Assembly: GCA_016929635.1 (NCBI GenBank)
Contig: JAFGIL010000039.1
Span: 3,251-67,250, forward strand
Length of the DNA: 64,000 nucleotides
Direction of reading: 5' to 3'
Source of the DNA: Endomicrobiales bacterium
GTDB taxonomy: Bacteria; Elusimicrobiota; Endomicrobiia; Endomicrobiales; JAFGIL01
The position numbers were made by a program, and so were the translations under genes. Below, piece after piece: positions 6,421 through 51,927 of the stretch. Below the pieces are notes generated by a model. The model saw nothing but the letters and a program-made list of their open reading frames with translations, did no database searches and was not told where the DNA came from. Each line of letters begins with the position of its first letter. The stretch's first letter is position 1.

Positions 6421-6432
6421 ATAAGAGGTATT

Positions 6433-22677: not shown

Positions 22678-22702
22678 ATTTATACTTTAATTACTAAAAA
22701 TC

Positions 22703-22773: not shown

Positions 22774-22847
22774 ATTATAAAACAACCTCAACATTATATT
22801 TAAAAGAGATCATACTTCGGCAGGAAGTCCTAAATTTTAATATATAC

Positions 22848-27034: not shown

Positions 27035-30000
27035 TTAGCCTGCGGCATTGATGGCTTGTTGAAGTGCGGCAATGGCTGCCTGCGGTGCTTCCTCTACTAT
27101 GAAAGGTTCCTGGCGCTGATAGTGCGTAAAAAGAATATTTAAAAGGTCTGTAACTAAAACACCTCTACCTCTATCACCCCATGTCCTAATATCACCAAAA
27201 TTACCAATATAAGGAGCTATTATTTGATGAGGTGATTGTCTCTGAAGCCTTTCAGGTAGAGTGTGTTCGTATTCAACCGAAGTAACTCTTTTTAATACTT
27301 CATTGATATCTATTCCTTCATCTAGGTTTGCTATTTCTATTAGCAGAAGTTTCAAGAAAGCAGATTCATATTCCGGAGCCTCGAACTTTATATCACTAAT
27401 ATATCTTGCTTTTGCCATAGCACATGCTATTCCAACTAAAAATCCTCTAAACTCAGCATATGCATTTACTTGTTCTTCCATATCATCATTATGTCTAATT
27501 CTATCAACTAGCCTATCGAACTCCTGTCTGATACGCCCTTCTTCAGCAAACATTTCAGGCACTTCTATTAACAATCCCTCATCTATTATTTCATTTTCTA
27601 AACACATATCGGAAATCTCGCACAGACGCTTGAATTTATCCGGATAGAAATCCATGTTAACGTCAAGAAGTTCCCCGCTCCGTTTCATGAAAAACGCCTC
27701 TCCGCTTTTACTGCTTTGCTCGAAGCACTCCTGAGGATTTTGCGGCTCATAACGCGTGATTAACCTCATTATTTTTGTCCTGACACCTATTGTAGTAACT
27801 CTTTCTCCTTTTTCCGCCTGACTTAAAGCTCTTTCATAATAATCGCTCGGGATAACGACGCATTTCATATTAACAGCCCTGCTTTTTACCATCCTTATCA
27901 TCCTGTCAAGCTCCCGCGGGCTTTCTATCATAACAGCGTTGTCCTCGCTTAAATCCTGCAGCCCTTGAGGCAATACAAAATATACCTTCTTTATGGGAAG
28001 CTTTGATAAAACTTCCCTGCTGAAACCCTGATACCAGGTTCTGACCGCCTGCTGCTGTGCCGGTGCTGTCATAGCCCTAAAGTCCAGATAGACTTCATCG
28101 TAAGCTATGCCGTTTAATCCCGCAGTCAACATATTGGTGATAAGGTTATTTAATCCCTGCCCCTGCAGCTGCTCCTCCTTAGTTACACGGACAGGCACAG
28201 AAACTTTTATCTTTGCTTGTTTTAATTTTGTCACGGCTGCCTGCAGCTCTGCCGTTTTTTCTGCAATCTCCGGAGTTAAAACTCCCGGAGAATCTTCAAC
28301 GTAAATATCCCGCAGCATTAAAGTGCTTAACGGTGTCCACATGGAATTATCCCTGTCCCTGAGTTCTGTAATACGTTCTGCCAGATTGGAAACGCCAAAT
28401 TCATCCACGCTCATATCCATAACTAAAGCTACTTCCCAGCTTGTTACGGATTGAATAGTATTAGTTAAAAATCCCTGCCATATCTTACGGAATCTTTGCA
28501 TAAAAGACATTCCTCTTTCAAGGACAAGATTAACTCTTCTGGATGCTTTTGCCTGCCTTACAAAACCTTGCATATTTTCGTGCACTCCGGAGGCATCAGC
28601 TATGACTTCCGCATCTCTTAATAAATCTTCTGCTTTATCAACATCCGGAAAAGTGACTTTCAGAGCATCGAAAGAAAGCGTCACGCTTCCATCTTCGTTA
28701 TAAACAGGATTAAATGACTGAAGCGCCTCGCCCGGGACCATGCCCATATTATCGATAAAAATAACTTCGGGCAAGCTCTGCCTGTTGCTTGCCCGACTTT
28801 TTGGCTGGCCCGCAATCAGCATTTCATTTACATCATCGTCTATAATTCCTCTGTAAAGCAGCTGGCATGTAAGCAAATACAGCGTCAATGCTTCCTGGTT
28901 AACAAGCCGCCTTTGTATCAGAATCATGCCCGTAGATTCATTCTTCCAGACATCTATTGGTACACTTCTATCGTTGATTCTCACAACAAGGTTCGGAATC
29001 CCGGTTTGTTTCCTGAATCCGTTCTTCCTTAAATTATAACCTTTAGGTATAAACCCTACTCCGTGAGCGTTCACCCCGGCTTCTTTTAAAGCTGCCAGTT
29101 CCTTCTGCTTGGACTCCAGATTCCTTTCATCATAAACAATGTGGACAGTATCCCTGTTAACCGCGTAAGGATACTGCTGCCTCAACCCAGAAAACCCGTC
29201 CATTTGTGCCTCAACACTTTCCCGGGCTATCCTATTAACATTCGCTGTCCTTCTTGCAGCAAACAGCGCTCTTCTAATTATGTCTCTAATTACATTAGGT
29301 AATATAGAAATTGAGCCAATCACCTGATTAGTATAAGGCGCAACTTCGGCTCTCCATCCGCTTTTCTTTTCTTTATCTCCTGCATTAACTTCATCTCGAA
29401 TAGTACTTACATTTCCATTAGCTACTTCTACCATGTTGCTGGGCATAGCCATATGGTCTCTAAGAATATTCCAGTCAAACTGTTCTCTGCTTAGTTTATG
29501 ATACTCTTGCTTAACACGATATACTATACAATCATCATCCCGCCCCACTCTTTCCAGTATTCCTGCATCGACAAACTCCTGCGCTATGTCCAGAAGCACC
29601 CATTCCCTTTCAATAATAAGGAACTCCTTATTCCATGAAGGGTCATCAACTGCGATTATAGAAAGGATATGATTTCTTGCTTTATCCCAGAAACCAGCAG
29701 TGAACGAATCCCGCAATAAATGTATTGCTTTATCCTTAATTGAATCGATTAATTCAGCTCTGTCATACATTCCTGCATAACCTGCAAGATCTGTTATCAT
29801 TCTTAAGACTATGTCCAAACTCATTAAATCCATATCCACTATATCGAAGTTTACGGGCTTTGCAGTGGCAAGATCCCGCAAATGGCCGTTAATAGAAATA
29901 TTCTGCCTGCTTATCATCCCGTGCGTATAACCCTTTTCATACCACAAAGCGACCTGGCTTGTAACATTTTTTAACAAGAAATCAATATATAAGTCAAACA

Positions 30001-33000
30001 GGGTTTTCTTATCTATTTTCTTTCTGAACATTCCTTTTTTAATAACGCCTTTTTTCTCCAGCAACGACCTTATCACTCTTTCCTGCATCTCAGCAGGCAT
30101 TTCCAGGACATCTTCCAGTGTTATTATATCTTCCAAAGGCTGGGGCTTGTAACTTACAAAAACAGGGTCTACCCAATCAGTATTATTTTTTTCTCCCGGA
30201 ATAAAAAAGTCACCCAGATCTTCAACTCCCACTAAGCCCGTGTTTCTTGACCATACATGTTCCAAGCCAACAATACTGTCAACTTCAGGAATAATTACTG
30301 CAGAGTCAGCACTTGTTAGCTTTTTAGACATGTCACTTCGTTTTTCTGCTTCATCGCGCGCCATAAAACCGGAATAAACCGGGCCTACCGCAAAATTTCT
30401 GCCCGGATTATGGACAAAAGAAGGAGTAAGCCCGATACCATGGTAACAAATGAATCTGTCTTCGCCCTCAATAGTACAGGGATGGAAAAGTGCCCTGCCC
30501 TGATAACCAACCAATTCACCTTCTCTATTCTCAAAAGCTGTCTCAAATAAAACCGAAACTTGATATTTTTCAGGTGAGTCATAAACCCTTCTTGCTTCCT
30601 CTGAATCGGAAGATATAACGAAATATGCCTGTTTCCCGTCTGAGTTAGGCTTTGCCAAAACATAAACAGGATTAAACCAGGGATATTTTTTGCTGATTTT
30701 TGCACCATACTTTACAAGTTCATCGAAGTCCGTTCCACTGCCTTTCCTTGCAACCGGGGGCAGGATGTCAGCAAACTGTCTAAGATGCACGGCTTCATGT
30801 TTTTCTATTATGTGCTTTTTCAGGTATTCCGGCAGCAGGCCAAAGGCAAGAGCATCGATATAAATAACTTTGCGCCTTTTCTCATCAACCAGATTGTTTG
30901 GATCAATACCCGCAATACCGTCGATTTTTTCACCCGGCGGGTTCTCTCTATCCTCGAAATCCCTGAACACATACCCCTGCTTTTCATATTTTTTATTTAA
31001 TTCTTCTATGACTTCCCGGATTTCCAGATTAAGTTCTTCCTGCTTCCGGGATATTGCATCATTATTTCTTTTTGAATCAGAAATGTTTATAGCGTCCTTT
31101 ATATACCCGGACTGATTCATCATTGCTAAAGAACCGGAAATTAAAACCAAGCCTGCGCTTATAGATAATGCCCTGATTAAATACATAATCCACGGCACTC
31201 CTATCCAGTTTCCAACAAGCCACAGAATTACAGGAACCAAAACTGCTCCGATTCCCGATATTACAGCTGCTATTTTTGAACCTCTGGCTGATGCAGGCAA
31301 ATTTGACATCTCTGACTGCATGGCAGCTATTTTTTCCGCTGTTTCTATATCCTCTATGTTTGCAGCAGCTTCCGGGGAAGGTTCGGTTTCAAGCCATGCT
31401 TTAATGATTTCCAGAACTTCATCAATGTGCACACTCTTATCATCTTCAGTGAAAATACGTCCACCTAAAGCTATAACATTTGCATCAAATTTTTCCCTTG
31501 CAACTACTGCAGCATCCACATTGTTTGTTACTACTCCTCTCATACCGGCAAATTTTTCCAAAGACATACAAATCCCAAATCCGGTACCACACTGAACTAT
31601 ACCCAAATCGCTTTCTCCTGATAAAACTATTCGCGCAACTTTTTGGCCGTACTCCGGATAATTTATGTTTTCACCTGCAGCTTTCTTGCTGGCTATTGTA
31701 TCCCTGTCAACACCAACAGGCTGTAAAACTATTTCTATGCCACGTTCCTTTAAAGATAGACCTAATTCTTCCACTAGTTTTTCCTGTAACGCTTCCATTA
31801 ACTCAATGGCTCCATGGTCGCAGCCAATTGCAATCCTTGTCTTACCCGCCTGCTTTTTTGCTGTCGGGCTTGGAGGAACCGGTTCCGGTATTTCCATAAA
31901 CATATCCAATCTTTCCTGGTGCCTTGGCTCTTCTATACCCTCATATGCAGTTTCGAGCCACTCCTTTTCAATCTGCGCTCTTTCTTCCGCAGTGCCTTTG
32001 CTTCTGTCTATTATCAAAATATTTGTGTCATTATGAGCCCTGCTGAGAACGGTTGTGTTTCTTTTGTCATAAGTTATAGTTGGAGTCAGATCCGCAATTA
32101 CAGCCCTGACTGCGCGGAATTTGTTTGCAGCAACAAATGTACCTATAGCCTGTTCTGTTGTGTCGCAATAAATAATCGCCCTTTCTCGTTCCCCTCTTGA
32201 TACTTCCTGCGCAACTTCTACTGCATGCCTTATGTAATCATGATTTATTTTATTGATCAGAGTCTGTAAGGACTCTGCCATGCTATTAGCAACAGGTTCA
32301 GTTTCAGTCTTTAAAGGAAAGGTAACTTTAATGGTATAGTTCTTTTTCCCGCGTTTAGTAACCGCTAGTGCACCGCCCAACTCTTCAAGCACAGCATCTA
32401 TAAAATCAGCTCCTATTTGTTTAAATCTTGTAGGGCTGAATACATTGTTTGTGTCTATTTGAATAACCAGATTTCCATCTTCATTATATGTATTGATATA
32501 AAACTCAAGCCCATTCTGGTTCCTGAAGGGTACGAACAAAGCTAATAAAAGATAAGCAAGTTTATCCTGAGATACATCCAACTCGCCTTCCGCGCGCAAT
32601 CCGGTTCTCACTGTTATATCATAACGATCTGCATAGTATTTTGAGAAAACCAATCCGGATATTTTTGACACAACATCATTTACATCAACAGATCCTCTGG
32701 CTTTATGCTCAAGCAGAAGTTTTATTCCATCTGCAAAATTGCTGACATCTTCCATGCCTTCAATTATTTCTTCAACATTGTCAGGCTCCTGTTCTATTAA
32801 GGCTTTAAGAATGTATAAATTTCTTTCTATATAATCTATTATCTCCTTAAAATGCTCTATAGCACCTTTGCTGTCAACTTTCCCCAGAGATATCTTCTTA
32901 TCCCGGTTGGCAGCAGGTGAGATGTAATCCCATTGAGCCCTGAGTTCTTTAAATACTTTTTTAGCCTTTAAACCTTGTACTTGTAAATCTTCATTGTTGA

Positions 33001-42000: not shown

Positions 42001-45000
42001 TTCTTGACTGGGAAAGCTGCCCCGGGTTTACTCTCAATTCTTTCAAGAGATATTCATCAAACAATCTTCTGTTTGATGACCCTTCAATGTTTATCGCCAT
42101 GTATTCGTCTGCTTCATGCTGTCCGTTTAATTTTGCAAATTGAAGGTTACGATGTTCTGTATCCATTCTTGTATCTTTATATCTCTTGTTCCATAGCTCC
42201 GGAGAACCGATATTTTTTAACCGATCAATAAACTCTGTATTCTCTAAAATCTCAACTCTTTGCTCTGAAACTTTTCTTGTAACAGTTGCAATGCCGCCAT
42301 TTTGCGCTGTGCCCATAAGATTTTCTGTTTCGCTGAATTTGACCTCAACTTCACTTATCGGGCATGCAGCTTCACCTTCAAACACTTCCATTGCGCCCTT
42401 TTGTAAAGCCTCTTCAAAAGAAGCCAATTCCGCTGTCGTATCTATTAGCCCATATTCCATAATCGCAATAGCCGCATTATATATGAATCCGCGGTGAGTT
42501 TTATCGTATTTAGACAAAGCTTCTGCAAACTCTTCAACTGTGCCGACATCTCTTCTAATGTCTCTTAACTCGTAAAACAGCTGCGGAGAGAATATATGTA
42601 AAAAATACAGTATATCTGTATCACCGGAAATAGAAAATGTAAACTCCGCTACTTTTAACGCCATATTCCATGCCAATGCTACTGGCTCTGCTTTTGGTGT
42701 TGAGGTACCGAGATCATTTTTTGATTCTTCTTTATCTAGTAATATCCCCAGAAGCTCTGAAGTCTCCCTTGGGCCGGAGACCCATGCACAATAAACTCCG
42801 GTTTTAAACACATCCCGTGCAGCGCTACCTCTGTGCATCGAACCATCAAAGTATATTGCACTCTTCCTGCTAAATCCATTATACCTGAGCGTTCTTAAAA
42901 TTGTATCTGCCTTATTAGTCAGGCTAATCTGAATATAATCATGCATCGGGGATATGAGGGGCATTGCATGATAAATTTCCACCATTGCAGACATTGCCAG
43001 TTCAAGCTCATCTTCTGATAAATCATAGTGCTGGAGCATCTCTTCTCTTTGAGAGGACATAAAGCTGCTGACTTCTTCGAGAAAATCATCAGGATCAGTT
43101 CCCGGACGCTCTCTTTCAAGTGCTTCCTGATTCAGATATATTCTGCCTTCATAACCCATTCTATCGTCTCTTCTAAAGAATTGCCCGTATTCTGATTCCA
43201 ATACTGCCTGAATTATATCCTGCTTAAGTGCCCCAAATAAAAACTCATTAGTATCCACCCGCATTATTGGTATAGTTCTTTCTTCTATCTCGCTTAACTC
43301 GCCCAATTGAGTGACCCTGTATACTTTTAAGCCTGATTCTGCATGCAAAGAAAACAATGAACGAAATTCTTCTTTATCTTTAATATATTTAATAAATTTA
43401 TCCAGATATACATATATATACGAGGCCCGAGGAGTATCTGTTTCAAATGCTGCTGTTGTTACTATCTCAACTTTTATCCCCTGTCTCATTAGTTCAAGCA
43501 TTAGTTCAAAGTTGGGATTATCCTTACGCATATACATAAATTCATAATCGTAACCACCCACCAAAGTCCCGTCCAAATCAAAAAATGCTACTTTAACACC
43601 TCTTGCTTTTGCCGCCGCAACATTTAAAAAGTTATAATTTCTTTGCCTTTCATCTTTTGATACTAAGCCTTCCCTTATCGATTTCACCCCCAATGCCATT
43701 GGATTAAAATGTTTATCAGTTCTACCGATTTTTATTAATTCACGATTGAGGGATATCAAATCTTTCAGCTCGGAATCATTCATATCGCTTCTTGGTTTAA
43801 ATGGAACCTGACGCAGGTAAAAAGCAATATTAAATACATACTCTTTTAAAGCATATGTTTCTGCATATTCGGAAAGTTTTTGGATTACTGCATTATCTAT
43901 ACGCTGGTCCTGGAAAATATTAATAAGCGCCATTACTTCATCCACGTTCCACGTCCCGGGGGTTGTTAGTAATATATTGAAAATTCCTTCATGTATTGCG
44001 TATCTTTCATTTACTGTTTTTAAAAAATCTAATACCTGCTGGCCATGTTTATCCTTAACCTGCCTCCACTTCTCTTCCAATTCAGTTTGCGATGTGCCAA
44101 AAACCTGTATCTCAATAATCCTCGCTAACTCCTCTTCTCCGATTTCCTCCGGATCAAAAATATCTAGTAAATCTTCAATAGATTTTCTTAATTCAGGCCC
44201 AAAAATTCTCGGCGACTCACCCCTGTTTAGTTTATATTTATAGTCAACGTATAAATTACGTATCTTAGTCTGTAATTCTACTTCTCCTAAAATATGTGCT
44301 AAAAATGCTAATCTTTTTAATGATTTAAGCCAATCCTCAACCGGTTTGTCTTTATTTGATAACTTGAAACCATTAGTATAGTTTCTTTTATAATGAGCTA
44401 TTACATTATTTATAATCTCATCTCTGCTCATCTGTTGAATTGACTCATTCAGGATAGTTAAATCCCCATAATAACCTGCAAATGGATCAATATACGGTTT
44501 TTTTGAAACCCCGATATCTATTGTTAGTTCTGGAATCCCCCTGCCTGACACGGTTACATTCGCACCTTTTTCCCCAATTGTTACTTCAAAACCAAATAAA
44601 CGCAATTGATTTGCAAACTCCTTTGCCAGCTCCACGCGTAATTCATTCATCAATACTTTAGTTAATTCGACATCTTCTAATCTTAAACAAATCCTTGTAT
44701 CAAGATCACTAATATAATCCCAATCAATCTGATCATCTGAATTTATATCAGTATATGCGCTCCCGAATACCTCAATAAAAAATCTTCCCTTGAAATTATA
44801 TCCTTCCAGCAACTTGTTAACGGATGTCTGCAATATTTCAACCACCCTTACATCCCCATCCTGAGATTCTTTAACCGGCAACATATAAGCTTCATTAATT
44901 GAGACTGTTTCGATATACCCTATTGGAGTGCCATCAAGGGAAGTCTCTATCCGTTTTGCCCTGACATGATATGTATCAACCGAACGGATAGCAGGCGGTG

Positions 45001-48000
45001 CTATATCAAGAAGTTCTTTTTTTGTGGCTTTAGGCCTTTCAATTCCCGGTAAAGCCGGAATATAAACAAAACCGGCATCGGGTGAATCATCATCAATAAT
45101 TCTGAAGTCTGCATCAATATGTGTGGAGATTGGATTAAAACAAGGTAGAATGACTAAATCCTGCTCAATACTTAAATCTGCAGGCACTTGCGCTAACTCA
45201 ACTAACACAGGAGGGCCTCTAACATCCTTGCTATCTTCTAACCATTTCAGCATATTTGCTTTTATATCATCACTAACAACGCCTGCAATCCAGTAAAATA
45301 AATCAGGATAATTATTATAAAGCGCTTCGTAGATTTCCGGATTATACGGATCATTCTCTACCATTTCTAAGAATTTTTTGACATCTCTGCCCCTCTCACC
45401 TTTTTTCATAAGAGATTCTGGTGTTATGCTTAAAACCATGCGGATCGGCTCTTCACCGGTGAGGATATTTTTAAGAAATCTTCTGCTTTTTGACGAGTCA
45501 CTATCAAAAAATAATCTTGTAAATTCCCTTTTCATCGTACGGTTGGAAGGGTCATTCAGCGTTTCTATAAATTTAATAACTTTGCCATATTTTAAGCCAT
45601 ACTCAGAGTGTTCGATTAATTCCTTTGCTGTATTTGTAGTACTTACAACATAGTTTTTTATTTCTATAAAATATAACTGGCCGTCCTTCCTTGCCACAAT
45701 ATCTATTTCCGCTGTAACCATAGATAATCCCAGGTATATTATTTCAAAACCGGCTCCTTCAAGGGCTTCTGCGTGTTTAAGCTCCCCCAATTCTCCGAAT
45801 ATACTTGTACTTCTTTCATAAACAACGCTCAACCCTGATTCTATCCTGAATATCTTATTTTCCATGCCAGGAACATTTACAAATTTTTCTATAAGGCTAA
45901 AACTTTCTTCGCTTAACACATCAGAATGATAGATATTTCTCGACGCCTTTAATAATTTCAGAATTAATGCATATTGTCTATTTTCAAGTATTTTCCTAAA
46001 CCAGTCAGCTTTCGCCATTTTTAACAAGAATAATAACAGTCTAACCGATGATGTTTTTTCCGGTATGTCTATTAATTTTTCCAACGTCTCCAGTTCTTCT
46101 ATATCTCCTGACAAAATAGCAGCAGCGAATCTTGCTTCTTGGTCTTTTTTAACTAATCCGCTTTCTCTTAATAGATCAAAAATCCGATCCAGGATTTCAT
46201 ATGCTGTTTCCAGTTTTGTAGATGATAGTTTTGTCCCATCCAAATTTTCTATTATTGATTTTTTATAAGGTCCTTCAGGTATAGCATGTAAATCCAAAAA
46301 TTCTCTCAATTTTTCTTCCATATTTGGATTAAGATTTCTTCGGAATATTATTCTACACTGCCTAACCTGCTCTTTAGAAAGTCCTAATTTATGTACAATT
46401 CTCATAAAATCTACGGTTTTCTGTTTAAAACTAGACAACAGAGCTTGACTTTTTTGTGCTTCAGAAAAGATTATAGGAGAATCTGATAGGCTGGATTCCC
46501 TCTCAATTAGCGTAATAAAACTTGATACTAAAGCCGCTCTTCTTTCAACTTCTGCAATGGTTTTTGAATTTTTCAAAATATATCCTATCTCCTCTTTATA
46601 TTTAACCTCAATTCCTAGCTCTGCTAATTTTTGTCTAATTTTATGTTCATTGCTTGTAGGCAATGTTGAAGCAACTTTCATCCACTTGGGGAGTTTGCCA
46701 ATTGAAACCAGATACAAATATAATGAATTCCATATAAAATGCGCTAATGTGCTTGCTATGTAAGATATTAAAGGCGAAAGCAGGGGTGATATTGGCAGGG
46801 TAATATACGAAACTAAAATATAAACTGAGGTAAATATAGTAGCAGGTATAAAAATCAATAAATCTCCAGCTGTTGGAGGTTCTTTCTCAACTATCCATCT
46901 GACAATTATATGTATTGCTGAAAAAACTATTATGCTTGCTGCCCAGGATATTAAATAACTGTATGCGTTCGCTCCCAATAAAGAGAAAATGCCTTGTATT
47001 ATTAAACCTCTGAGCAAATACTCTTCCCAGAAAGGCGCTGCCAGAATAGTTGCAATATGAGCTTTTGTGCCTTCCCCGAGCCATCTCTTTGCTATCGGGT
47101 CAACCACCGAACCGGGTTTGGAAGTGATACGAGCAATTAAATCAGCCAGCCTGCTGCCAGTCCCTGGAATGGAATCTGATATATCATCAAGACCGGTAGC
47201 CTGATATATGTCTGTCTTTTGTTCTGTTTCGGGATCAAACTGGTTTATGTCTCCGGTTTCGATGCTGTAAATAAAAGTTTCCGGGTTCTGGAGATCGCTG
47301 CAGGTAACCGTAATTAATATTGAATCATCCCCTTTTTCTTCCAGTCCTATATTTAAGCCTGAGCCCTTAAAAGTCACATCCAATATCTCCTGAACTTTTT
47401 CTATACCTCCTTTTTTGACTTCGGCCCCTAACTTTTTTACGTTCTCTAAAACCTCTTTATCAAGAATTGTTTTGGTATAGACCCTGCCCGCTAAAACCTT
47501 TTCTCCGGGAGATGACTCGTCGGTATGCATTAATCTTGTTAACGTTTCAAGCGCCAGCATGTCAACAGGTGCTGGCCCGGAGATATTAGACAAAATCCTG
47601 CTTTGCTGCTGAATCAAATCAGAATATACTGATTCGGCAAATGTTGTATCCTCCGTTACATTTGGAGTGATTACAATATATGGAACACCTTTTTCTTTAA
47701 ATATCCCCTTTAAACCTGATGTATGGAAACCACCGGTAATAAGCACAACCACATTCTCGTAATCAGTAACTGGTAATCGGTCATCAGTTTGTATTTGTTG
47801 ACTGATTACTGATGACTGATGACCGATTACTTTGCAGTTTGCAAACAGGCAGTCATTTCTTTTCAAGTTTACCGCATAGTAATCATTTAAAAGTTGCAAA
47901 TATGCTGAGATTCCGGAAAGTTTGCCGTTACCAACGTAACGCGTCCATAATAGCTCAAATTTTGCGAAGTTTTTATTTATATATTCATAATCTTCGGCTG

Positions 48001-49171
48001 ATATTTTATATGACAAATAATCCCCAAGATAACGCGTAAATTCAATAAGAAACAATATCTCGCGCTCGCTTTCTTTTTGCGCCAGGCGCAACCTGATCTC
48101 ATCCAATAATCTCTGTTCCTCTTTAATAAGCTCAAGAGGATTGATTCTTTGATTTAAATCAAGATTTGCAAAAAACGTCTTAAGATTCGGGAATTTATCT
48201 AATACCGAAGGTTTTTTATCTGCTATCCTGGAAAGATATATATAAAGCTCATTTGCTTTCGAAAAATTCGCAGTCCTTTCAATTAATAAGCTGTAAGTGT
48301 TATAAGGAAGCTTGCTCTTTAAAAAAATAATGAATTCCTTCATCTCCCTTGCAACAGCTTTATAATCGACTCTCTTCGATGTTTCAATCGAATCCGTAAA
48401 ATCAGACAGATTTTTGAAAGAACCAAGATCCACACCCAGCTTTTCAGCTTTTCTAATAAGGTAGTCATAATATTTTTCAGGTTTTAATTTTCCGGCTTTA
48501 AACTTCTTAACTACTTTATTCAGTTTTTTATTACTTCTGTTATAGTACCTGTCTTCCAGCCCGGTTAAATCGTCTTTGATGTCTTCTAACTTTTCTTTTA
48601 TCTGCGGCTGCTCCCTAACAATCCTGCTCAGCCTTAACATATTTTCCGTATGCAATTTTTTATTTTCCACTCCGATTAAAAGGTCATTTCTCTCTGACAC
48701 GGCAGCATAATGCTCGGCACCTGTAAGTTTACCGCTGTTTAGAAGCGCATCCAGAATTTCATTTCTAAGTTTTTTATCCCTGATACGGGTAAGCCAGGAA
48801 GTATTGAGCGCACCGCAGCTCCCTTCTATGTACACGTTCTTCAATGAATACTTTTTGTCCAGCACTTCCAATATTTTAGAAATATTTCTTTGCACCTCGG
48901 GGTGGCAATGCAGGTCTTGGATGTTTACTACTAGCGTAGAGCGTTTAGCGGATAGTGGATAGTTATCCTCCCCTATACGCTCTACGCTCTCCGCTATCCG
49001 CTGTTCTGTGATTCTCCCATATGAGGAAGGAAGCACAAAGCTGTCAAAAACATCTTTGTATCCGTTTATAGCACGCCTTTTTTCGACAACCGCATGTAAA
49101 GGCTGGCTTATTATAAACGTAAACGTGAAACAACTTATGGTTAATAGTGCGATGATTTTTTTATAGTTCAT
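27035..49171 (-). CDS. Giant (7,378 aa) signal-anchored polytopic multidomain protein of unknown function
   Basis: A single open frame of 22,137 nt. Every other frame across the interval is broken, and the longest competing ORF is 139 aa. Several independent conserved motifs fall in the same frame (see the sub-features). Confidence 0.9.
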   Translation of the reverse strand: MNYKKIIALLTISCFTFTFIISQPLHAVVEKRRAINGYKDVFDSFVLPSSYGRITEQRIAESVERIGEDNYPLSAKRSTLVVNIQDLHCHPEVQRNISKILEVLDKKYSLKNVYIEGSCGALNTSWLTRIRDKKLRNEILDALLNSGKLTGAEHYAAVSERNDLLIGVENKKLHTENMLRLSRIVREQPQIKEKLEDIKDDLTGLEDRYYNRSNKKLNKVVKKFKAGKLKPEKYYDYLIRKAEKLGVDLGSFKNLSDFTDSIETSKRVDYKAVAREMKEFIIFLKSKLPYNTYSLLIERTANFSKANELYIYLSRIADKKPSVLDKFPNLKTFFANLDLNQRINPLELIKEEQRLLDEIRLRLAQKESEREILFLIEFTRYLGDYLSYKISAEDYEYINKNFAKFELLWTRYVGNGKLSGISAYLQLLNDYYAVNLKRNDCLFANCKVIGHQSSVISQQIQTDDRLPVTDYENVVVLITGGFHTSGLKGIFKEKGVPYIVITPNVTEDTTFAESVYSDLIQQQSRILSNISGPAPVDMLALETLTRLMHTDESSPGEKVLAGRVYTKTILDKEVLENVKKLGAEVKKGGIEKVQEILDVTFKGSGLNIGLEEKGDDSILITVTCSDLQNPETFIYSIETGDINQFDPETEQKTDIYQATGLDDISDSIPGTGSRLADLIARITSKPGSVVDPIAKRWLGEGTKAHIATILAAPFWEEYLLRGLIIQGIFSLLGANAYSYLISWAASIIVFSAIHIIVRWIVEKEPPTAGDLLIFIPATIFTSVYILVSYITLPISPLLSPLISYIASTLAHFIWNSLYLYLVSIGKLPKWMKVASTLPTSNEHKIRQKLAELGIEVKYKEEIGYILKNSKTIAEVERRAALVSSFITLIERESSLSDSPIIFSEAQKSQALLSSFKQKTVDFMRIVHKLGLSKEQVRQCRIIFRRNLNPNMEEKLREFLDLHAIPEGPYKKSIIENLDGTKLSSTKLETAYEILDRIFDLLRESGLVKKDQEARFAAAILSGDIEELETLEKLIDIPEKTSSVRLLLFLLKMAKADWFRKILENRQYALILKLLKASRNIYHSDVLSEESFSLIEKFVNVPGMENKIFRIESGLSVVYERSTSIFGELGELKHAEALEGAGFEIIYLGLSMVTAEIDIVARKDGQLYFIEIKNYVVSTTNTAKELIEHSEYGLKYGKVIKFIETLNDPSNRTMKREFTRLFFDSDSSKSRRFLKNILTGEEPIRMVLSITPESLMKKGERGRDVKKFLEMVENDPYNPEIYEALYNNYPDLFYWIAGVVSDDIKANMLKWLEDSKDVRGPPVLVELAQVPADLSIEQDLVILPCFNPISTHIDADFRIIDDDSPDAGFVYIPALPGIERPKATKKELLDIAPPAIRSVDTYHVRAKRIETSLDGTPIGYIETVSINEAYMLPVKESQDGDVRVVEILQTSVNKLLEGYNFKGRFFIEVFGSAYTDINSDDQIDWDYISDLDTRICLRLEDVELTKVLMNELRVELAKEFANQLRLFGFEVTIGEKGANVTVSGRGIPELTIDIGVSKKPYIDPFAGYYGDLTILNESIQQMSRDEIINNVIAHYKRNYTNGFKLSNKDKPVEDWLKSLKRLAFLAHILGEVELQTKIRNLYVDYKYKLNRGESPRIFGPELRKSIEDLLDIFDPEEIGEEELARIIEIQVFGTSQTELEEKWRQVKDKHGQQVLDFLKTVNERYAIHEGIFNILLTTPGTWNVDEVMALINIFQDQRIDNAVIQKLSEYAETYALKEYVFNIAFYLRQVPFKPRSDMNDSELKDLISLNRELIKIGRTDKHFNPMALGVKSIREGLVSKDERQRNYNFLNVAAAKARGVKVAFFDLDGTLVGGYDYEFMYMRKDNPNFELMLELMRQGIKVEIVTTAAFETDTPRASYIYVYLDKFIKYIKDKEEFRSLFSLHAESGLKVYRVTQLGELSEIEERTIPIMRVDTNEFLFGALKQDIIQAVLESEYGQFFRRDDRMGYEGRIYLNQEALERERPGTDPDDFLEEVSSFMSSQREEMLQHYDLSEDELELAMSAMVEIYHAMPLISPMHDYIQISLTNKADTILRTLRYNGFSRKSAIYFDGSMHRGSAARDVFKTGVYCAWVSGPRETSELLGILLDKEESKNDLGTSTPKAEPVALAWNMALKVAEFTFSISGDTDILYFLHIFSPQLFYELRDIRRDVGTVEEFAEALSKYDKTHRGFIYNAAIAIMEYGLIDTTAELASFEEALQKGAMEVFEGEAACPISEVEVKFSETENLMGTAQNGGIATVTRKVSEQRVEILENTEFIDRLKNIGSPELWNKRYKDTRMDTEHRNLQFAKLNGQHEADEYMAINIEGSSNRRLFDEYLLKELRVNPGQLSQSRTTDNFHHFIEFLHELEMQRKLAEYYPENIKLAERLAGQWFLLWFTQYYGRAWEESDLRNGLNELISYIEKETSVVEETINRILAESSRGKAADMELIRQSVNDLLVAIDRINFEFANIVAIGEVLNMDEFLSHFSHWSRTSIAGARGFLELYTGTETLDLLPSVADVVLRGFGKLYFMLEVIRKECFPSEPWDVPVTANMNHKELEDAYTGLAAEISKGRRNAINRTEMRKRFRRKLAEVRAGDITEQERLEVGIVQEIMGEIFGGKTILSSIIDGFVEDYLDRKGVSPERFRDCFSLVASMDDFTDLDGTVEKSRQAAAVVDNIIHEGSDEVFAVYIARDAGYLFETDVYMQEIRDGPKRAGLVYPFKNEQEIYSKMHGVYLSVKEDIGEDDFAAFQKEFNARAKRLFDSDLEAFEQASRLYRQILDTGVLASGRKRVKFVDTFGSGKTPLFVSAVFEYFREETRMEDVVSEPFNILLRRDGLASSPSLVDIKTDGLTKYAQEKKYGIIVERHGIDLEGIEWEWEEHPFYVKLLEDGSLDKEDWPAGYLLSSIRDDITFNGVIKYLEKTGELSDRTPQARPVSKRTEEIKDFGPEEKALVLKKATAVIKDLARRMFVKVYDVKWARTSRYPRGTIEVIVNSKRGNVQGFQSYIKSMWNSYVLQGLDEGKKIGLKVTIITSEESRVAGYGIQTDTKYQAEEIVLNSKFWQWVQRNTDVDIEQPPARLNLWVYALFKAVVGIVSFSIAGVHEAPKIWNFREFIQGHAREGEKLSVLYAGWLGLVTLVIYGLSIALPIVSVATLVSAGLAGISPGLWIGSFIYMILLGIINLKMDLTFFESLTVVPHYAVNIILLPVVPVINFVGGLVGMTFNVIINPLYNSIKNRLIAGIPNELKQKPIVYVTSEIAIQNTVFAGGLGKLAADTAYAASDVADSNMIFMTLLYQGGRHPVEQENGTYTRGFYKSDYSKVDGIEQVMARDERGEEVPLEVELDITGEKIKVKVWKQVIKGEKGASTVYYLDCPSINYELYPDWPWDRFRQELLLGKGSVEVLKALQIQPTVIHMNEAATSFTAPFAMDDEHFKDTRYVFATHTPVKAALRSYEEGWWNRTGIPDKYRGAFVRDGRMQLTQGAMNLMQGDHGMIYGVSEKHEEVSRDMFPEFSHVIHSVTNGSHIGFWRHPDLKKVRSKAKLAEVKKRLKGDMIGRVKELTGVELDEDKPVALFTRRMVEYKRLWMILSDDGIVDLMLKDKEEGGLGMQLVVAGNPYGDYGLWMIKSIKSLQEKYPGKIVYIPGYDEGDLSVNRMLFAGGDFILHIPRLREEASGTSFQMASINGVPSANSQDGAPLEHIKEFDPETGNGNGFMMAQDNREALMDMLRKISDIYYNDADAWRDVSWNAFKSSEGEMSAVRMVKDYYNHLYLPVYKAGKIDSLENMQPGRSVITNVEQGGEVTVTVDLGIHDLSPRAATVELWSNFTGEWRAHKMTPLRQISSIEGREVWQYGITFTPLETGTFKYTVRAGVHDERTGDYKILYWFDGPGNDGIVSVKEREGGYFATQEISMASAASLPLVILLTAALLLWPVWFMGRSNVVVWITRALGMRASPEGKETLIKGIEGIKFVSREKTGFFEVPEASKNTIHVNPFVHAILSEYPRLGKAFLYAQGIIGFEAYHLIHPDKSKSTLKIEFPAYLINRILPVFLGAGIGMILVFSGFASGVWVLIAIAVSIPVITALISWYEFMAWRRRRIQELKDEKLEKRLQNLSEKLIASRYPLKILRDLFELGRPAVPVIIEWLRQTHNKEKEARMLAVDWLGENNYKEALDVFGEIVKEEKDSEVIQRTVRAIGRIQDKKDTAIHKFILSRYIESKDDASIRYLTLKSMAGMETDEAYEILLDRLRNDSDPFVRNEAMESLVKMKYPKAVDVIIERVNEDEAIVVQIFAVRLLGEINDEKAVGPIIDLFHRNLSIGIPSKDLSYVIGYALAGIGTQRVAEFAVELLDEGFYLTLYGILDFNRPMFPELIAWLKNNSGKKDNERSVLIGHMREADIRRETDFIIELLENDQSGDVRAKAAAALGKVRKSKVFKALANSLLNDPISEVRVSAAEALGEQGSPKAVDYLVERLRNDEDYKVRTVSAKSLGLIRSPRAVSILIEKLSTDESPDVRLASADALGEIRTTEAVGPLLDRVRYDEDNTVKMYAVGALERIGDQAAVPYLAEILESVPLDNANLRARIGTVSGNITLSTVNRIINAPANRGVREIIQTVRSDVLRRFLRLQSIVLRAEGQARENWYEFTRSLLRNSPSLKFKPLPRGVKFPEEPEPVDADLLPAYEDVNSLFKTIDAAEGVERMGTYVTTWGRKVLYKRQDGTYFSLKIQKEDEDVEALARERNNLEFLHALKDRERAAGIKDGLKGEWARPAGNDGSIYRVRIPESETVTKTGEQISLAQADGYYTVLVLEETRETLMYLDGSAGMDSSKADMELVRELLGEDIDSTQFENANRMIINDMMKLLEYGIVHPDTIYLYHEELMLRGEERARTGANTAANRLDEASWNWMLFGRMSAPLKSARFSNYRLAGFADVEKLTTISAISEGRYNRRYFSTVGRERPHDRTDTGLVGADPKKIAYYYFGAYLLSLVLTRLSWMDTEEPFVYLGAEDRRQKLAVSLKDTFNQAFVDFSGSEISGLDSVIGDEGWQLMADQLVYFLSGQHAEDVASQDEEAMERLHSMFPGSEVEILSLETLEELDPKREYFRKKSPRNGLMIGNSYNSQDRDLGAINANNPATELWKALCIYSAFAVTENGMKEKKRSDRLIRLWKPLFESLGFWIGYIGVVYGVPLILGFLGVDASIVLSIKDVLMSKTFRLVLYAGLNTIFGLLHKRLFRYNRDLVEWLPDEKPASIPARFGVGLIGALTIHTPVLLHIFGINISSLLPILLPQFLTIPGLFVSIFVLHLVWNNVIARLFGLFALAGSKAGKSVSTNVDRRALLEIFPHQDYLEYLYLYGFGSQLIVNNEDLQVQGLKAKKVFKELRAQWDYISPAANRDKKISLGKVDSKGAIEHFKEIIDYIERNLYILKALIEQEPDNVEEIIEGMEDVSNFADGIKLLLEHKARGSVDVNDVVSKISGLVFSKYYADRYDITVRTGLRAEGELDVSQDKLAYLLLALFVPFRNQNGLEFYINTYNEDGNLVIQIDTNNVFSPTRFKQIGADFIDAVLEELGGALAVTKRGKKNYTIKVTFPLKTETEPVANSMAESLQTLINKINHDYIRHAVEVAQEVSRGERERAIIYCDTTEQAIGTFVAANKFRAVRAVIADLTPTITYDKRNTTVLSRAHNDTNILIIDRSKGTAEERAQIEKEWLETAYEGIEEPRHQERLDMFMEIPEPVPPSPTAKKQAGKTRIAIGCDHGAIELMEALQEKLVEELGLSLKERGIEIVLQPVGVDRDTIASKKAAGENINYPEYGQKVARIVLSGESDLGIVQCGTGFGICMSLEKFAGMRGVVTNNVDAAVVAREKFDANVIALGGRIFTEDDKSVHIDEVLEIIKAWLETEPSPEAAANIEDIETAEKIAAMQSEMSNLPASARGSKIAAVISGIGAVLVPVILWLVGNWIGVPWIMYLIRALSISAGLVLISGSLAMMNQSGYIKDAINISDSKRNNDAISRKQEELNLEIREVIEELNKKYEKQGYVFRDFEDRENPPGEKIDGIAGIDPNNLVDEKRRKVIYIDALAFGLLPEYLKKHIIEKHEAVHLRQFADILPPVARKGSGTDFDELVKYGAKISKKYPWFNPVYVLAKPNSDGKQAYFVISSDSEEARRVYDSPEKYQVSVLFETAFENREGELVGYQGRALFHPCTIEGEDRFICYHGIGLTPSFVHNPGRNFAVGPVYSGFMARDEAEKRSDMSKKLTSADSAVIIPEVDSIVGLEHVWSRNTGLVGVEDLGDFFIPGEKNNTDWVDPVFVSYKPQPLEDIITLEDVLEMPAEMQERVIRSLLEKKGVIKKGMFRKKIDKKTLFDLYIDFLLKNVTSQVALWYEKGYTHGMISRQNISINGHLRDLATAKPVNFDIVDMDLMSLDIVLRMITDLAGYAGMYDRAELIDSIKDKAIHLLRDSFTAGFWDKARNHILSIIAVDDPSWNKEFLIIEREWVLLDIAQEFVDAGILERVGRDDDCIVYRVKQEYHKLSREQFDWNILRDHMAMPSNMVEVANGNVSTIRDEVNAGDKEKKSGWRAEVAPYTNQVIGSISILPNVIRDIIRRALFAARRTANVNRIARESVEAQMDGFSGLRQQYPYAVNRDTVHIVYDERNLESKQKELAALKEAGVNAHGVGFIPKGYNLRKNGFRKQTGIPNLVVRINDRSVPIDVWKNESTGMILIQRRLVNQEALTLYLLTCQLLYRGIIDDDVNEMLIAGQPKSRASNRQSLPEVIFIDNMGMVPGEALQSFNPVYNEDGSVTLSFDALKVTFPDVDKAEDLLRDAEVIADASGVHENMQGFVRQAKASRRVNLVLERGMSFMQRFRKIWQGFLTNTIQSVTSWEVALVMDMSVDEFGVSNLAERITELRDRDNSMWTPLSTLMLRDIYVEDSPGVLTPEIAEKTAELQAAVTKLKQAKIKVSVPVRVTKEEQLQGQGLNNLITNMLTAGLNGIAYDEVYLDFRAMTAPAQQQAVRTWYQGFSREVLSKLPIKKVYFVLPQGLQDLSEDNAVMIESPRELDRMIRMVKSRAVNMKCVVIPSDYYERALSQAEKGERVTTIGVRTKIMRLITRYEPQNPQECFEQSSKSGEAFFMKRSGELLDVNMDFYPDKFKRLCEISDMCLENEIIDEGLLIEVPEMFAEEGRIRQEFDRLVDRIRHNDDMEEQVNAYAEFRGFLVGIACAMAKARYISDIKFEAPEYESAFLKLLLIEIANLDEGIDINEVLKRVTSVEYEHTLPERLQRQSPHQIIAPYIGNFGDIRTWGDRGRGVLVTDLLNILFTHYQRQEPFIVEEAPQAAIAALQQAINAAG
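29750..30560 (-). other. Giant protein: SelO/YdiU-like or other protein-kinase-fold module (tentative, aa ~6204-6474)
   Basis: YTHGMISRQNISINGHLRDLA aligns position by position to SelO HGVMNTDNMSILGLTIDYG. Upstream, ICYHGIGLTPS...GR......G.MARDEAEK resembles LQLKGaGrTPys..GDGR....ssiREfl.sEA. Confidence 0.3.
31120..31285 (-). other. Giant protein: hydrophobic cluster (2-3 TM helices, aa ~5963-6018)
   Basis: SKIAAVISGIGAVLVPVILWLVGNWIGVPWIMYLIRALSISAGLVLISGSLAMM. Confidence 0.5.
31385..31850 (-). other. Giant protein: RpiB/LacAB-family sugar-phosphate isomerase-like module 2 (aa ~5774-5929)
   Basis: RIAIGCDHGAIELMEAL (IAIGsDHaG.eLKe), YPEYGQKVARIVLSGESDLGIVQCGTGFGICMSLEKFAGMRG, and AREKFDANVIALGGR. 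Confidence 0.7.
31940..32190 (-). other. Giant protein: partial RpiB/LacAB-like module 1 (C-terminal half of the fold only)
   Basis: AIGTFVAANKFRAVRAVIA......VLSRAHNDTNILIIDRS parallels RpiB GiG.SIAANK..GIRAA......a...ReHNdaNVL.lG.R. Confidence 0.4.
33120..33600 (-). other. Giant protein: degenerate CPBP-like membrane domain 2 (aa ~5191-5351)
   Basis: Hydrophobic helices carry IFGLLHKRL (FxxxH) and FVLHLVWNN (HxxxN). The EExxxR position is reduced to FESLGFW. Confidence 0.4.
35360..36650 (-). other. Giant protein: HEAT / PBS-lyase-type repeat array (aa ~4174-4604)
   Basis: The unit D..VR..AA.ALG.i....Av..Li..L.d is repeated at least 8 times, for example DPISEVRVSAAEALGEQGSPKAVDYLVERLRND and SPDVRLASADALGEIRTTEAVGPLLDRVRYD. 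Confidence 0.7.
37370..37700 (-). other. Giant protein: beta-sandwich (E-set/CBM-like) module after the GT35 domain (tentative)
   Basis: GGEVTVTVDLG...ATVELWSNFTGEW...MTP......WQYGITF.PLETGTFKYTVRAG has the alternating beta-strand pattern of carbohydrate-binding or E-set domains. Confidence 0.3.
37740..39315 (-). other. Giant protein: alpha-glucan phosphorylase (GT35, GlgP-type) domain lacking the PLP lysine (aa ~3286-3811)
   Basis: Collinear family motifs are present: SEIA..GGLGKLAAD, IHMNEAATSF, FATHTPV, GVSEKHEEVSRDMF, VTNGSHIGFW, FTRRMVEYKR and EASGTSFQMASING. The last is canonically EASGTSGMKAALNG. Confidence 0.75.
39330..39825 (-). other. Giant protein: hydrophobic cluster (about 5-6 predicted TM helices, aa ~3116-3281)
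   Basis: LNLWVYALFKAVVGIVSFSIAGV ... LVTLVIYGLSIALPIVSVATLVSAGLAGI ... FIYMILLGIINL ... VNIILLPVVPVINFVGGLVGMTF. Confidence 0.5.
42780..43600 (-). other. Giant protein: HAD-superfamily-like hydrolase module (aa ~1860-2130)
   Basis: Motif I is VAFFDLDGTLVGG (D1865-x-D1867). A motif II-like EIVTTAAF follows. The distal AIYFDGSMHRGSAARD is only loosely like motif IV. Confidence 0.45.
44500..44850 (-). other. Giant protein: possible Pol-beta-type nucleotidyltransferase-like module (weak)
   Basis: FIEVFGSAYTDINSDDQIDWDYISDLDTRICL has a G-S ... D-x-D arrangement, but the 17-aa spacer is longer than the usual 9-13. Confidence 0.2.
45645..45800 (-). other. Giant protein: YraN/UPF0102-like PD-(D/E)xK nuclease-fold module (aa ~1125-1175)
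   Basis: GELGELKHAEALEGAGFEIIYLG...AEIDIVARKDGQLYFIEIKNY matches the YraN pattern G.GE..A...L...G..I......GEIDlia......fVEVK. Confidence 0.45.
46690..47090 (-). other. Giant protein: CPBP (CAAX/Abi-type) intramembrane protease-like domain 1 (aa ~695-825)
   Basis: All three family motifs sit in hydrophobic helices: FWEEYLLRG (EExxxR), FSAIHII (FxxxH) and AHFIWN (HxxxN). Confidence 0.6.
47670..48931 (-). other. Giant protein: ChaN / TraB / Tiki / EreA-superfamily-like domain (tentative, aa ~81-500)
   Basis: VVNIQDLHCHPEVQRNISKILEVLDKK..NVYIEG resembles the ChaN N-terminal pattern (vvllGE.Hdnp.hH..q...L....lalE). VVVLITGGFHTSGL resembles the C-terminal vvv.G.gH..G motif. Confidence 0.3.
49091..49171 (-). 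other. Giant protein: N-terminal signal peptide / signal anchor (aa 1-27)
   Basis: MNYKKIIALLTISCFTFTFIISQPLHA has a basic n-region, a hydrophobic core and an A-x-A-like end. Confidence 0.6.
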
Positions 49172-49700
49172 TTTTCTGCAAATAAAAAACCCGATTTATT
49201 AAGGAATAAATCGGGTTTGCATATCTTTTATTCAAAAATGACATAATAATGCTATCTATTGCACCTCGCGGTAAAAGATAAAACAGCAACATAAATAAAG
49301 TAAAAAGCCATAGTTCCTGCTTGTACCTTGATTTTGGTATAACCTCTATATTAAAAAGATCCCGGGAGCAATCGGCGTATTTAATAAAGCCATCTGCTTT
49401 ATTAATCCTGGATGCCTTGAGAATCAAGTTATTCGTATTGGGAACTAAACAAGAATCTTTTTCAGGTTTTACCGGCTTCCTTGAGTGTTTGCCTTTTTCC
49501 TGATTGGGTAAAGAACTCTCTTCCATCATCGAATCCAGCATTTTAACTGCTATATCTGATATGTACTTTGAAAGGAAGAAGCTTGTCCCCAGCGATGACG
49601 GGTTGGAAACAGTATCAACCTGAAAATCAACCGACAGAAGGGTTGAGAAAGGATTAAGTATCAAACAGGAAATAATGACTAATATAAGTTTTTGTTTCAT
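49161..49700 (-). CDS. Hypothetical bitopic membrane protein (179 aa) overlapping the giant ORF start
   Basis: An N-terminal signal sequence (MKQKLILVIISCLILNPFSTLLS) and a C-proximal TM helix (LWLFTLFMLLFYLL). The stop TAA at 49163..49161 overlaps the giant start (AUGAACUAUAA). Confidence 0.6.
   Translation of the reverse strand: MKQKLILVIISCLILNPFSTLLSVDFQVDTVSNPSSLGTSFFLSKYISDIAVKMLDSMMEESSLPNQEKGKHSRKPVKPEKDSCLVPNTNNLILKASRINKADGFIKYADCSRDLFNIEVIPKSRYKQELWLFTLFMLLFYLLPRGAIDSIIMSFLNKRYANPIYSLINRVFYLQKNEL
49176..49218 (-). terminator. Intrinsic-terminator-like hairpin plus U-tract immediately upstream of the giant ORF start, inside the 3' end of the upstream ORF
   Basis: Minus-sense RNA reads AAACCCGAUUUAUU-CCUU-AAUAAAUCGGGUUU, then UUUAUUUG. 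The stem is a perfect 14 bp with a CCCG/CGGG base. The giant ATG is at 49171. Confidence 0.5.
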
Positions 49701-49736: not shown

Positions 49737-49764
49737 ATTATAAACAAAATTTATGAAATTTCAA
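49737..49764 (-). promoter_or_regulatory. Sigma70-like promoter candidate for the small-ORF + giant-ORF unit (TTGAAA-N16-TATAAT)
   Basis: On the minus strand, TTGAAA lies at 49764..49759 and TATAAT at 49742..49737. This is about 37 nt upstream of the ATG at 49700. Confidence 0.35.
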
Positions 49765-51902: not shown

Positions 51903-51927
51903 TTATGCCCTCCCGAAAATTCAAAAA

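Follow-up and report, generated by a model that had tools for sequence, protein, structure and literature searches.

Conserved head, shuffled body and conserved tail of a 7,378-residue putative envelope protein from an Endomicrobiales bacterium

The 64,000-nucleotide stretch of DNA analysed here (the window; positions 3,251 to 67,250 of contig JAFGIL010000039.1, assembly GCA_016929635.1) comes from an Endomicrobiales bacterium of the phylum Elusimicrobiota and carries on its minus strand one giant open reading frame (ORF), coding for a protein of 7,378 amino acids (aa). The ORF is genuine, and its product has the marks of a real, folded protein. Judged from its sequence, this protein is a member of a very large Elusimicrobiota/Omnitrophota family, which combines a conserved head, a shuffled body and a conserved tail. 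It is probably an envelope-anchored modular polyprotein that processes itself. The original prediction, made from the same DNA, described the protein correctly, but the uniqueness it claimed does not hold, the protein being one of thousands; it also missed the family-defining head, the tail, the small gene upstream and the hairpin preceding the giant gene.

The giant gene and its family

The giant gene occupies 27035..49171 (minus strand) as a single ORF that starts with ATG and has no internal stops, according to both the ORF listing and an independent translation. Over the same interval the remaining five frames are interrupted by 222-656 stops each, and none of them stays open for more than 159 codons between stops. 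No start-to-stop ORF of at least 150 aa overlaps the interval in any other frame of the ORF listing. With a stop probability of 0.073 per codon, derived from the base composition of the gene, the log10 probability of 7,378 codons remaining open is -241. The unbroken 22-kb minus-strand frame of the original prediction was therefore borne out. Its upper limit of 139 codons for competing frames is right in order of magnitude.

The amino-acid composition of the giant protein is close to that of the flanking housekeeping proteins, 86% of its 100-aa windows lie on the folded side of a charge-hydropathy plot, and codon-position GC is even along the gene. The identical protein is NCBI MBN1621709.1, annotated as “HEAT repeat domain-containing protein” in an Endomicrobiales metagenome-assembled genome (MAG). 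Since the family head forms the N-terminus and the family tail reaches the last residue at the opposite end of the same ORF, the ORF is complete.

As the source is a MAG, the gene might be an artefact, either a chimeric assembly or a row of genes that chance or sequencing errors have joined. We regard this as very improbable. A frame of such length is not expected by chance, its composition is uniform, and no long direct DNA repeats able to drive a mis-join were found within the gene. The same protein is present in a second source, a Logan assembly, with head and tail exactly at the ORF ends, and hundreds of relatives, one of them encoded in a single-cell genome, are built alike from head to tail.

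A search with aa 1-5000 returned the identical protein and 138 others, of which the 119 listed are 2.8-7.8 thousand aa (kaa) long. No collinear relative was found, the best non-self coverage being 17% of aa 1-5000. According to BLAST, the shared region extends from aa 1 to about 530, and it is N-terminal in all 120 homologues listed. A profile of this head matched 10,121 cluster representatives (clustered at 50% identity) at E ≤1e-3 and 7,178 at E ≤1e-30; it is likewise N-terminal in all 150 profile matches listed. In GTDB species genomes at least 545 family loci were confirmed, and many of these genomes hold several. The best 80 of these loci all belong to Elusimicrobiota: termite-gut Endomicrobium, rumen lineages, environmental MAGs and one single-cell genome.

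Identified by accession, three paralogues of the giant protein come from the same MAG: P0002 (7,833 aa), P0003 (7,449 aa) and P0011 (at least 2,891 aa). The source MAG thus holds at least four family members, together at least 25.5 kaa, and these have only head and tail in common. Candidatus Liberimonas magnetica has at least five confirmed members, probably seven. The bodies of the relatives are diverse. A hand count of Pfam domains among the relatives listed gave PPDK_N in 27 proteins, LMW phosphatase in 12, HD/HD-GYP in 12, phosphoglucomutase in six and PFK in four; radical SAM, AAA, TPR and HATPase_c domains also occur, as does SecA_DEAD in three Omnitrophota members. Modules of the giant protein's own body recur piecemeal in other members. 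As they are found there at changed positions, module shuffling is indicated. The check for a conserved domain order among homologues, proposed along with the original prediction, was run and found none.

Giant proteins of a similar kind have been described. Archaeovorins of Omnitrophota have many transmembrane (TM) regions, with HEAT as the commonest domain and glycogen-synthase-like GT5 as the second (bioRxiv 10.1101/2023.11.21.568195). Their inventory also includes GT1 glycosyltransferases, sugar-phosphate enzymes, HAD domains and peptidases, and in most of them a divergent SecA DEAD/preprotein-binding domain. The described Omnitrophota giants contain HEAT, GT5, sugar-phosphate isomerase, HAD and PPDK domains, and their N-terminal regions were characterised as “lacking identifiable domains”. 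Nielsen & Lui distinguish a “multi-enzyme metabolic cluster” class and find TM helices or a signal peptide in 94% of the catalogued very long proteins (bioRxiv 10.64898/2026.06.07.730766). Elusimicrobiota were reported to be enriched in proteins of more than 5,000 aa, which were left unassigned.

The giant protein resembles Archaeovorins and the multi-enzyme class in having TM regions between long soluble stretches, highly divergent domains (HEAT, starch-synthase-type GT-B, HAD, sugar-phosphate isomerase and kinase/ATPase-like), a sequence-unique body, and an N-terminal signal that precedes an unannotated N-terminal part. Its domain set (HEAT_2, Glyco_transf_5, two RpiB domains, HAD motif I and CPBP) is that of Archaeovorins, and the TM-rich character of the latter is matched by about 15 hydrophobic segments in six clusters spread along the chain. 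Large Omnitrophota proteins have a head 22-26% identical to that of the giant protein, and three of them (P0099, P0117 and P0118) also carry SecA_DEAD. On the other hand, Archaeovorins have at least 30,000 aa and come from Omnitrophota, while this protein has 7,378 aa and comes from Elusimicrobiota (Endomicrobiales). PF07517 (SecA_DEAD) gave no match in it, either at E ≤0.01 or in segment scans at E ≤1, and neither the C39 nor the S8 domain of Archaeovorins is present. Because its design and domain inventory fit and its head is common to SecA_DEAD-bearing Omnitrophota proteins, we assign the giant protein to a known, uncharacterised kind; because phylum and size differ and SecA_DEAD is lacking, it is not a formal Archaeovorin. 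With this match in design, and at least three paralogues in its own MAG, the architecture can no longer be called unrecognised. In the literature searched, no paper connects such giants with TIKI domains, with a conserved tail or with a partner gene and leader hairpin.

Head, tail and upstream small gene

The conserved elements at the two ends of the giant gene, and those upstream of it, are the following.

49737..49764, minus strand: promoter-like TTGAAA-16-TATAAT (11/12 matches) upstream of the small gene, a consensus match only
49161..49700, minus strand: small partner gene (179 aa), overlapping the start of the giant gene by 11 nt
49187..49218, minus strand: terminator/attenuator-like hairpin with a perfect 14-bp stem and a 4-nt loop, followed by a T-run
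49091..49171, minus strand: putative signal peptide or anchor, N-in (aa 1-27), from hydropathy and charge
47579..48946, minus strand: family-defining head, TIKI/erythromycin-esterase-like (aa 76-531), from an alignment and an AlphaFold2 (AF2) model
27038..27172, minus strand: C-terminal tail ...VTDLLNILF...IAALQQAINAAG (aa 7334-7378), a family motif

The head was studied in an alignment of 33 sequences from Elusimicrobiota and Omnitrophota (21-51% identity). Ten residues are invariant: D86, H88, E116, G151, R438, G480, G481, H483, P503 and Y516. The AF2 model built from this alignment has a pLDDT of 80.5 overall and above 90 for aa 77-530. It predicts a small alpha/beta core with strands 77-86, 113-121, 165-168, 471-480 and 498-503, interrupted by some 275 aa of inserted helical sequence, and places the invariant residues at strand ends. 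The resulting pattern is an acidic residue-x-His, a Glu 28 positions further, a conserved Arg and a second His after G-G-F.

The signature of the TIKI superfamily consists of two His, two Glu and a basic residue; it is represented by E3900, H3902, E3930, R4001 and H4030 in RRSP, and by H85/E113 in Bcr135 (PMC6254334). The His-to-Glu spacing of 28 in the head equals that in both proteins, and the head shows the same constellation with an Asp in place of the first Glu. As in the superfamily at large (Tiki1/2, TraB/PrgY, ChaN, erythromycin esterases, Bcr135, RRSP), the motif residues are predicted to lie at strand ends of an alpha/beta core. The head differs from these proteins in its leading Asp, in the insertion of about 275 aa and in the lack of a significant hidden Markov model (HMM) or Foldseek match; moreover, the domain here is the head of a multi-kaa protein. 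PF04187 (ChaN) matches two of the 33 head members, weakly (best E = 8.4e-4), and leaves the giant protein itself unmatched. EreC and 3B55 are among the Foldseek matches of the model, all of which are non-significant. No Pfam or NCBIfam model covers the head, and its profile found no relative among PDB sequences. The invariant residues, the modelled core and the weak ChaN, EreC and 3B55 matches together support the ChaN/Tiki-like N-terminus proposed earlier, and by its sequence pattern the head carries the catalytic signature of TIKI/erythromycin-esterase hydrolases.

In 202 family proteins the N-terminal hydrophobic segment is preceded by a net charge of +3.1 and followed by one of -0.2. The N-side charge is higher than the C-side one in 185 of them, the reverse being seen in four. 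Because of these positive-inside statistics the segment is predicted to be an N-in anchor, with the head domain outside the cytoplasm. Tiki, PrgY and ChaN are also extracytoplasmic on a membrane anchor.

The tail is about 45 aa long and has an apolar end of the form hydrophobic-L-x-A-A(G). The family endings include MLAAA, ILSAA and ILGAA, while the giant protein and its paralogues end in INAAG, IEAAG and ITAAG. A short helix, A(I/V)N(T/A)(I/L)IE(L/I)I, precedes the motif. Conservation is at the motif level: the tail motif terminates 106 of 245 family proteins, where 0.6% per position would be expected by chance, and a jackhmmer search seeded with the last 300 aa of the giant protein found one relative only. 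Most of the family proteins lacking the motif are probably cut by contig ends. A related tail is present in Omnitrophota members. The apolar tail resembles C-terminal degrons of the ssrA/Tsp type.

The product of the small gene has a signal-like N-terminal segment and a C-terminal TM segment, after which it continues with LPRGAIDS; in the small-gene family, the C-terminal TM segment is conserved and followed by a motif of the LPR(G/S)xS type. No NCBIfam family matched this protein. In Elusimicrobiota, such a two-TM membrane protein is encoded ahead of the giant gene. A co-oriented small ORF lies directly upstream of the giant gene in 57 of 72 related loci, and jackhmmer links 31 of these 57 to the 179-aa ORF of the window as homologues. 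P0007, P0008, P0037 and P0039 carry the small protein as a fusion with the giant one. Apart from this ORF, no conserved neighbour was found in the related loci.

The hairpin is situated in the 3'-terminal part of the small ORF, and 15 nt separate its end from the ATG of the giant gene. Of 69 related loci, 32 also have a hairpin followed by a T-run in the 100 nt preceding the start, compared to eight of 391 control windows. The relatives' hairpins differ in sequence, and the median distance from stem end to start is about 30 nt. These data suggest a conserved attenuator or terminator between the small and the giant gene.

One related locus, L001 (JGI 3300040998, Ga0395526_000034), has further genes just upstream of its small-ORF/giant cassette (region 1-2951): another very large gene, whose 2,219-aa product runs off the locus, and a gene pair for a histidine kinase and a GGDEF response regulator.

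Membrane clusters and enzyme-like modules of the body

Between head and tail we distinguished the following features, listed in the order of the protein chain.

46700..47062, minus strand: CPBP/Rce1-like four-TM protease core with intact EEYLLR, FSAIH and HFIWN (aa 704-824; PF02517)
45611..45814, minus strand: YraN/NERD-like PD-(D/E)xK module, EIDIVA...FIEIK (aa 1120-1187); HMM scores below curated cut-offs, motif intact
43292..43609, minus strand: HAD-like module (aa 1855-1960), motif I FFDLDGT intact (aa 1861-1869); weak HMM matches
39386..39814, minus strand: predicted TM cluster of about four helices (aa 3120-3262), from hydropathy
37733..39319, minus strand: alpha-glucan-phosphorylase/starch-synthase-like GT-B module (aa 3285-3813); TIGR02094 (1e-47) and PF08323
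36806..37330, minus strand: predicted TM segment, loop of about 110 aa and two further TM segments, then RRRR (aa 3948-4122); common to P0010 and P0032
35327..36622, minus strand: HEAT-repeat array (aa 4184-4615), HMM matches up to 3.5e-59 (HEAT_2)
33542..35341, minus strand: module without a family match (aa 4611-5210), common to P0143 and P0202; weak match to a SidJ-related pseudokinase model
33131..33550, minus strand: predicted TM cluster (aa 5208-5347), from hydropathy
31862..32314, minus strand: RpiB copy 1, LacA-like (aa 5620-5770); HND and R-H-x-x-R kept, D-H pair lost
31316..31837, minus strand: RpiB copy 2, LacB-like (aa 5779-5952); GCDH and CGTG kept, H/N and both Arg lost
31124..31273, minus strand: predicted TM cluster (aa 5967-6016), from hydropathy
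29492..30841, minus strand: SelO/kinase-like module (aa 6111-6560), HGMISRQNI...RDLA at aa ~6376-6440; weak HMM match

Hydrophobic clusters were located by the Kyte-Doolittle method (19-aa window, score ≥1.6) at aa 6-24, 739-803, 3121-3264, 3948-3966 together with ~4079-4120 (the latter by sequence), 5208-5347 and 5967-6016; the second of them extends by sequence to aa 704-824. The six clusters named in the original prediction were thus recovered at matching positions, and they support its view of a polytopic protein. Self-BLAST revealed no similarity between the TM clusters of the giant protein. The TM-loop-TM-TM module at aa 3948-4122 contains FEAYHLIHPD and ends with WRRRR; in P0010 and P0032 it is found at other positions, and no known family could be matched to it.

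The second cluster coincides with the CPBP core. The PF02517 match is slightly below the cut-off (E = 3.7e-4, 21.2 bits against 22.4), and all three diagnostic motifs are in place: EExxxR as EEYLLR (716), FxxxH as FSAIH (750) and HxxxN as HFIWN (811). As in CPBP/Rce1-like (Abi) proteases, these motifs are borne by a four-TM core, which is here a minimal four-helix form inside a giant chain. A strict motif search found the core in a minority of the family, about ten of 120 members.

The GT-B module scores 162.9 bits with TIGR02094, compared to the cut-off of 191.7, and matches Glyco_transf_5 at 4.4e-6. It reads EASGTSFQM where a solved relative, PDB 9l6i, has EASGTSGEK. Met therefore replaces the lysine that binds pyridoxal phosphate (PLP), and the module has neither the PLP lysine of EASGT(S/G)xMK nor the curated score of GT35 alpha-glucan phosphorylases. 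The SelO-like region (aa 6111-6560) is common to P0142 and to the same-MAG paralogue P0003 (36% identity, aa 4550-4861 of the latter).

Overall, HMM domain content agrees with the earlier description: the mosaic consists of enzyme folds of the cytoplasmic type and not of adhesin repeats. HMM support is strong for the GT35, HEAT and RpiB modules, and weak for the YraN-like, HAD and SelO-like ones, whose diagnostic motifs are intact. One proposed module was lost: the GHKL-like stretch (aa 5507-5627) has no HMM support and no clear Bergerat motifs. An AF2 run on aa 6179-7378 without an alignment gave a pLDDT of 34.7, which is uninformative on disorder.

The tandem RpiB domains (aa 5620-5952) are recognised with E-values of up to 1.4e-42, with PF02502 scoring 145 bits against a cut-off of 24.7 and NF004051 scoring 137.9 against 135. 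In NCBIfam, the first copy is matched by LacA models and the second by LacB models. E. coli RpiB served as the reference in the residue alignment. The LacA/LacB heterodimer is known to form one composite active site from residues divided between its subunits (PMC3755991). Compared with this galactose-6-phosphate isomerase, copy 1 has the H, N, R, H and R of LacA and copy 2 the D, H, C and T of LacB, so that the active-site set is complete across both copies; the difference is that here the halves are fused in one chain between TM clusters. Each copy is incomplete when taken singly. Because the losses are complementary in the same way as in LacA and LacB, the copies are not two dead enzymes, and the tandem is probably an active fused LacAB-type isomerase.

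This bears on the earlier idea that the giant protein is a sensor or scaffold made of mostly dead enzymes. The loss of the PLP lysine in the GT35-like module speaks for it, most modules score below curated family cut-offs, and HEAT arrays are protein-binding scaffolds. Nevertheless, we consider the idea quite improbable: the catalytic motifs are intact in the TIKI-like head, the CPBP core, the PD-(D/E)xK module and HAD motif I, and the tandem RpiB would restore one full LacAB-type site. Of the pseudoenzyme proposal, only the part concerning the GT35-like module can be retained.

Gene neighbourhood and possible role of the giant protein

Downstream of the giant gene lie rimI, a gene for a TPR protein, ispE, glmU and prs, and upstream of it the 179-aa ORF, pdxA, two genes for SurA-like peptidyl-prolyl isomerases (PPIases) and a speE-like gene, in agreement with the reported position between surA-pdxA and rimI-ispE-glmU-prs. 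No integrase or other island marker was seen in the window, and its sole RNA gene, tRNA-Gln (22702-22774), is 4.3 kb away from the giant gene. GC content at third codon positions (GC3) is 0.354 in the giant gene and 0.367 in the small one, compared to a mean of 0.446 (standard deviation 0.06) for the other 33 ORFs of the window. This bias of about 1.5 standard deviations is mild and does not clearly indicate foreign origin. Island origin is accordingly not supported, as the original prediction had it. A defence-system interpretation was also rejected, since PADLOC gave only a HEAT-repeat match.

The TPR protein two genes downstream (24095-26263, minus strand) has 722 aa, and its best model is PrsT of the PEP-CTERM system, below the cut-off. 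TPR proteins can bind C-terminal peptides. On the other side, an adjacent pair of SurA/PrsA-like PPIases (50850-52842, minus strand) is followed by a 730-aa fusion of a membrane region with a spermidine-synthase-like part (52901-55093, minus strand); the pair and the speE-like fusion are envelope-biogenesis neighbours of the cassette.

We consider it reasonably likely that the giant protein is an envelope-anchored modular multi-enzyme protein of head, shuffled body and tail, which processes itself and serves a surface or interaction role. Its working could be as follows. The small and giant genes would be co-transcribed from one promoter, and attenuation at the hairpin would restrict how much transcription continues into the 22-kb gene; more of the small protein than of the giant one would then be produced. 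The giant protein would be inserted co-translationally through its signal anchor by the Sec/YidC pathway, and the TM clusters would stitch the chain into the inner membrane with modules on both faces. The two built-in putative proteases, the TIKI-like head and the CPBP core, may process the polyprotein, its tail or the small partner, and the modules may act on glucans and sugar phosphates at the cell envelope. The whole would constitute a variable apparatus for surface or inter-cell interaction and not a part of core metabolism; such a role is preferred because there is no collinear orthologue and the paralogues are diverse.

Several points weigh against this interpretation. The small partner gene is not evident at two Omnitrophota loci, and the hairpin may do no more than terminate transcription of the small gene. 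The giant protein is 4-10 times shorter than Archaeovorins and lacks the SecA_DEAD domain typical of them. Hydropathy and positive-inside charge are ambiguous for the topology past the N-terminal segment, and published topology predictors disagree on such giant proteins.

The cargo could also be read in favour of a cytoplasm-facing metabolic scaffold, in which the TM clusters would tether glycogen and sugar-phosphate enzymes, together with the HEAT array, for the cell's own carbon metabolism. The modules have a central-carbon character (GT35/GT5-like, LacAB/RpiB and HAD here; PFK, PGM, PGK, PGI and PPDK in relatives), the gene neighbourhood is a housekeeping one, and 46% of Omnitrophota giants were interpreted by Nielsen & Lui as TM-only proteins with cytoplasmic domains (bioRxiv 10.64898/2026.06.07.730766). 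Yet the giant protein has no collinear orthologue, and its same-MAG paralogues share with it only head and tail, unlike housekeeping metabolons; the head is predicted to face outward, and the GT35-like module is devoid of its cofactor lysine. A scaffold of this sort is therefore, in our opinion, unlikely.

By analogy, the envelope-anchored polyprotein that we favour may be compared with MARTX toxins, which are likewise multi-kaa proteins with conserved ends, a variable enzyme array and built-in proteolysis, and which can carry RRSP, a module of the TIKI fold (PMC6254334). In MARTX the TIKI domain is a cargo, while here it is the head, and TM clusters are placed between the modules. This likeness raises the question of polymorphic effector delivery in the manner of MARTX or large clostridial toxins: the ends would provide export and translocation, the clusters would insert in the target membrane and the proteases would release the effectors. 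Conserved termini around a shuffled hypervariable middle, many paralogues per genome and extreme diversity are in line with such delivery, as are the adjoining protease-like modules (head and CPBP) and the use of TIKI domains as effectors in MARTX and PMT toxins (PMC6254334). In addition, the giant protein of V. archaeovorus, the type Archaeovorin, was detected by proteomics and is up-regulated in cells that have attached to larger host cells. Against this, RTX or glycine-rich repeats and a cysteine protease domain gave no Pfam/NCBIfam match, type I secretion system genes are absent among the neighbours, and no immunity gene or known toxin domain was found. The polymorphic-toxin layout is not seen either: the C-terminus is a conserved tail and not a variable toxin tip, the gene downstream is rimI, the sole conserved neighbour is the small ORF, and PADLOC showed nothing relevant. 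The cargo is metabolic or signalling-like rather than cytotoxic. Effector delivery thus appears rather improbable.

Returning to the self-processed envelope protein, we speculate that head, tail, partner and hairpin might make up an undescribed self-contained biogenesis system, in which either the head or the CPBP core would recognise the tail or the partner and then cleave or ligate it, thereby exporting, anchoring or releasing the modules. We put this forward tentatively, as a possibility with the odds against it. If true, it would be a new sorting or processing pathway, serving over 10,000 protein clusters from two phyla, and would explain how giant proteins are built and deployed.

Giant TM-rich multi-enzyme proteins account for several percent of some Elusimicrobiota and Omnitrophota genomes and are suspected to take part in predation or symbiosis. 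The head, the tail, the partner gene and the leader hairpin provide testable handles on their biogenesis, processing and regulation, and a member of 7.4 kaa is far more tractable than the Omnitrophota proteins of 40-150 kaa.

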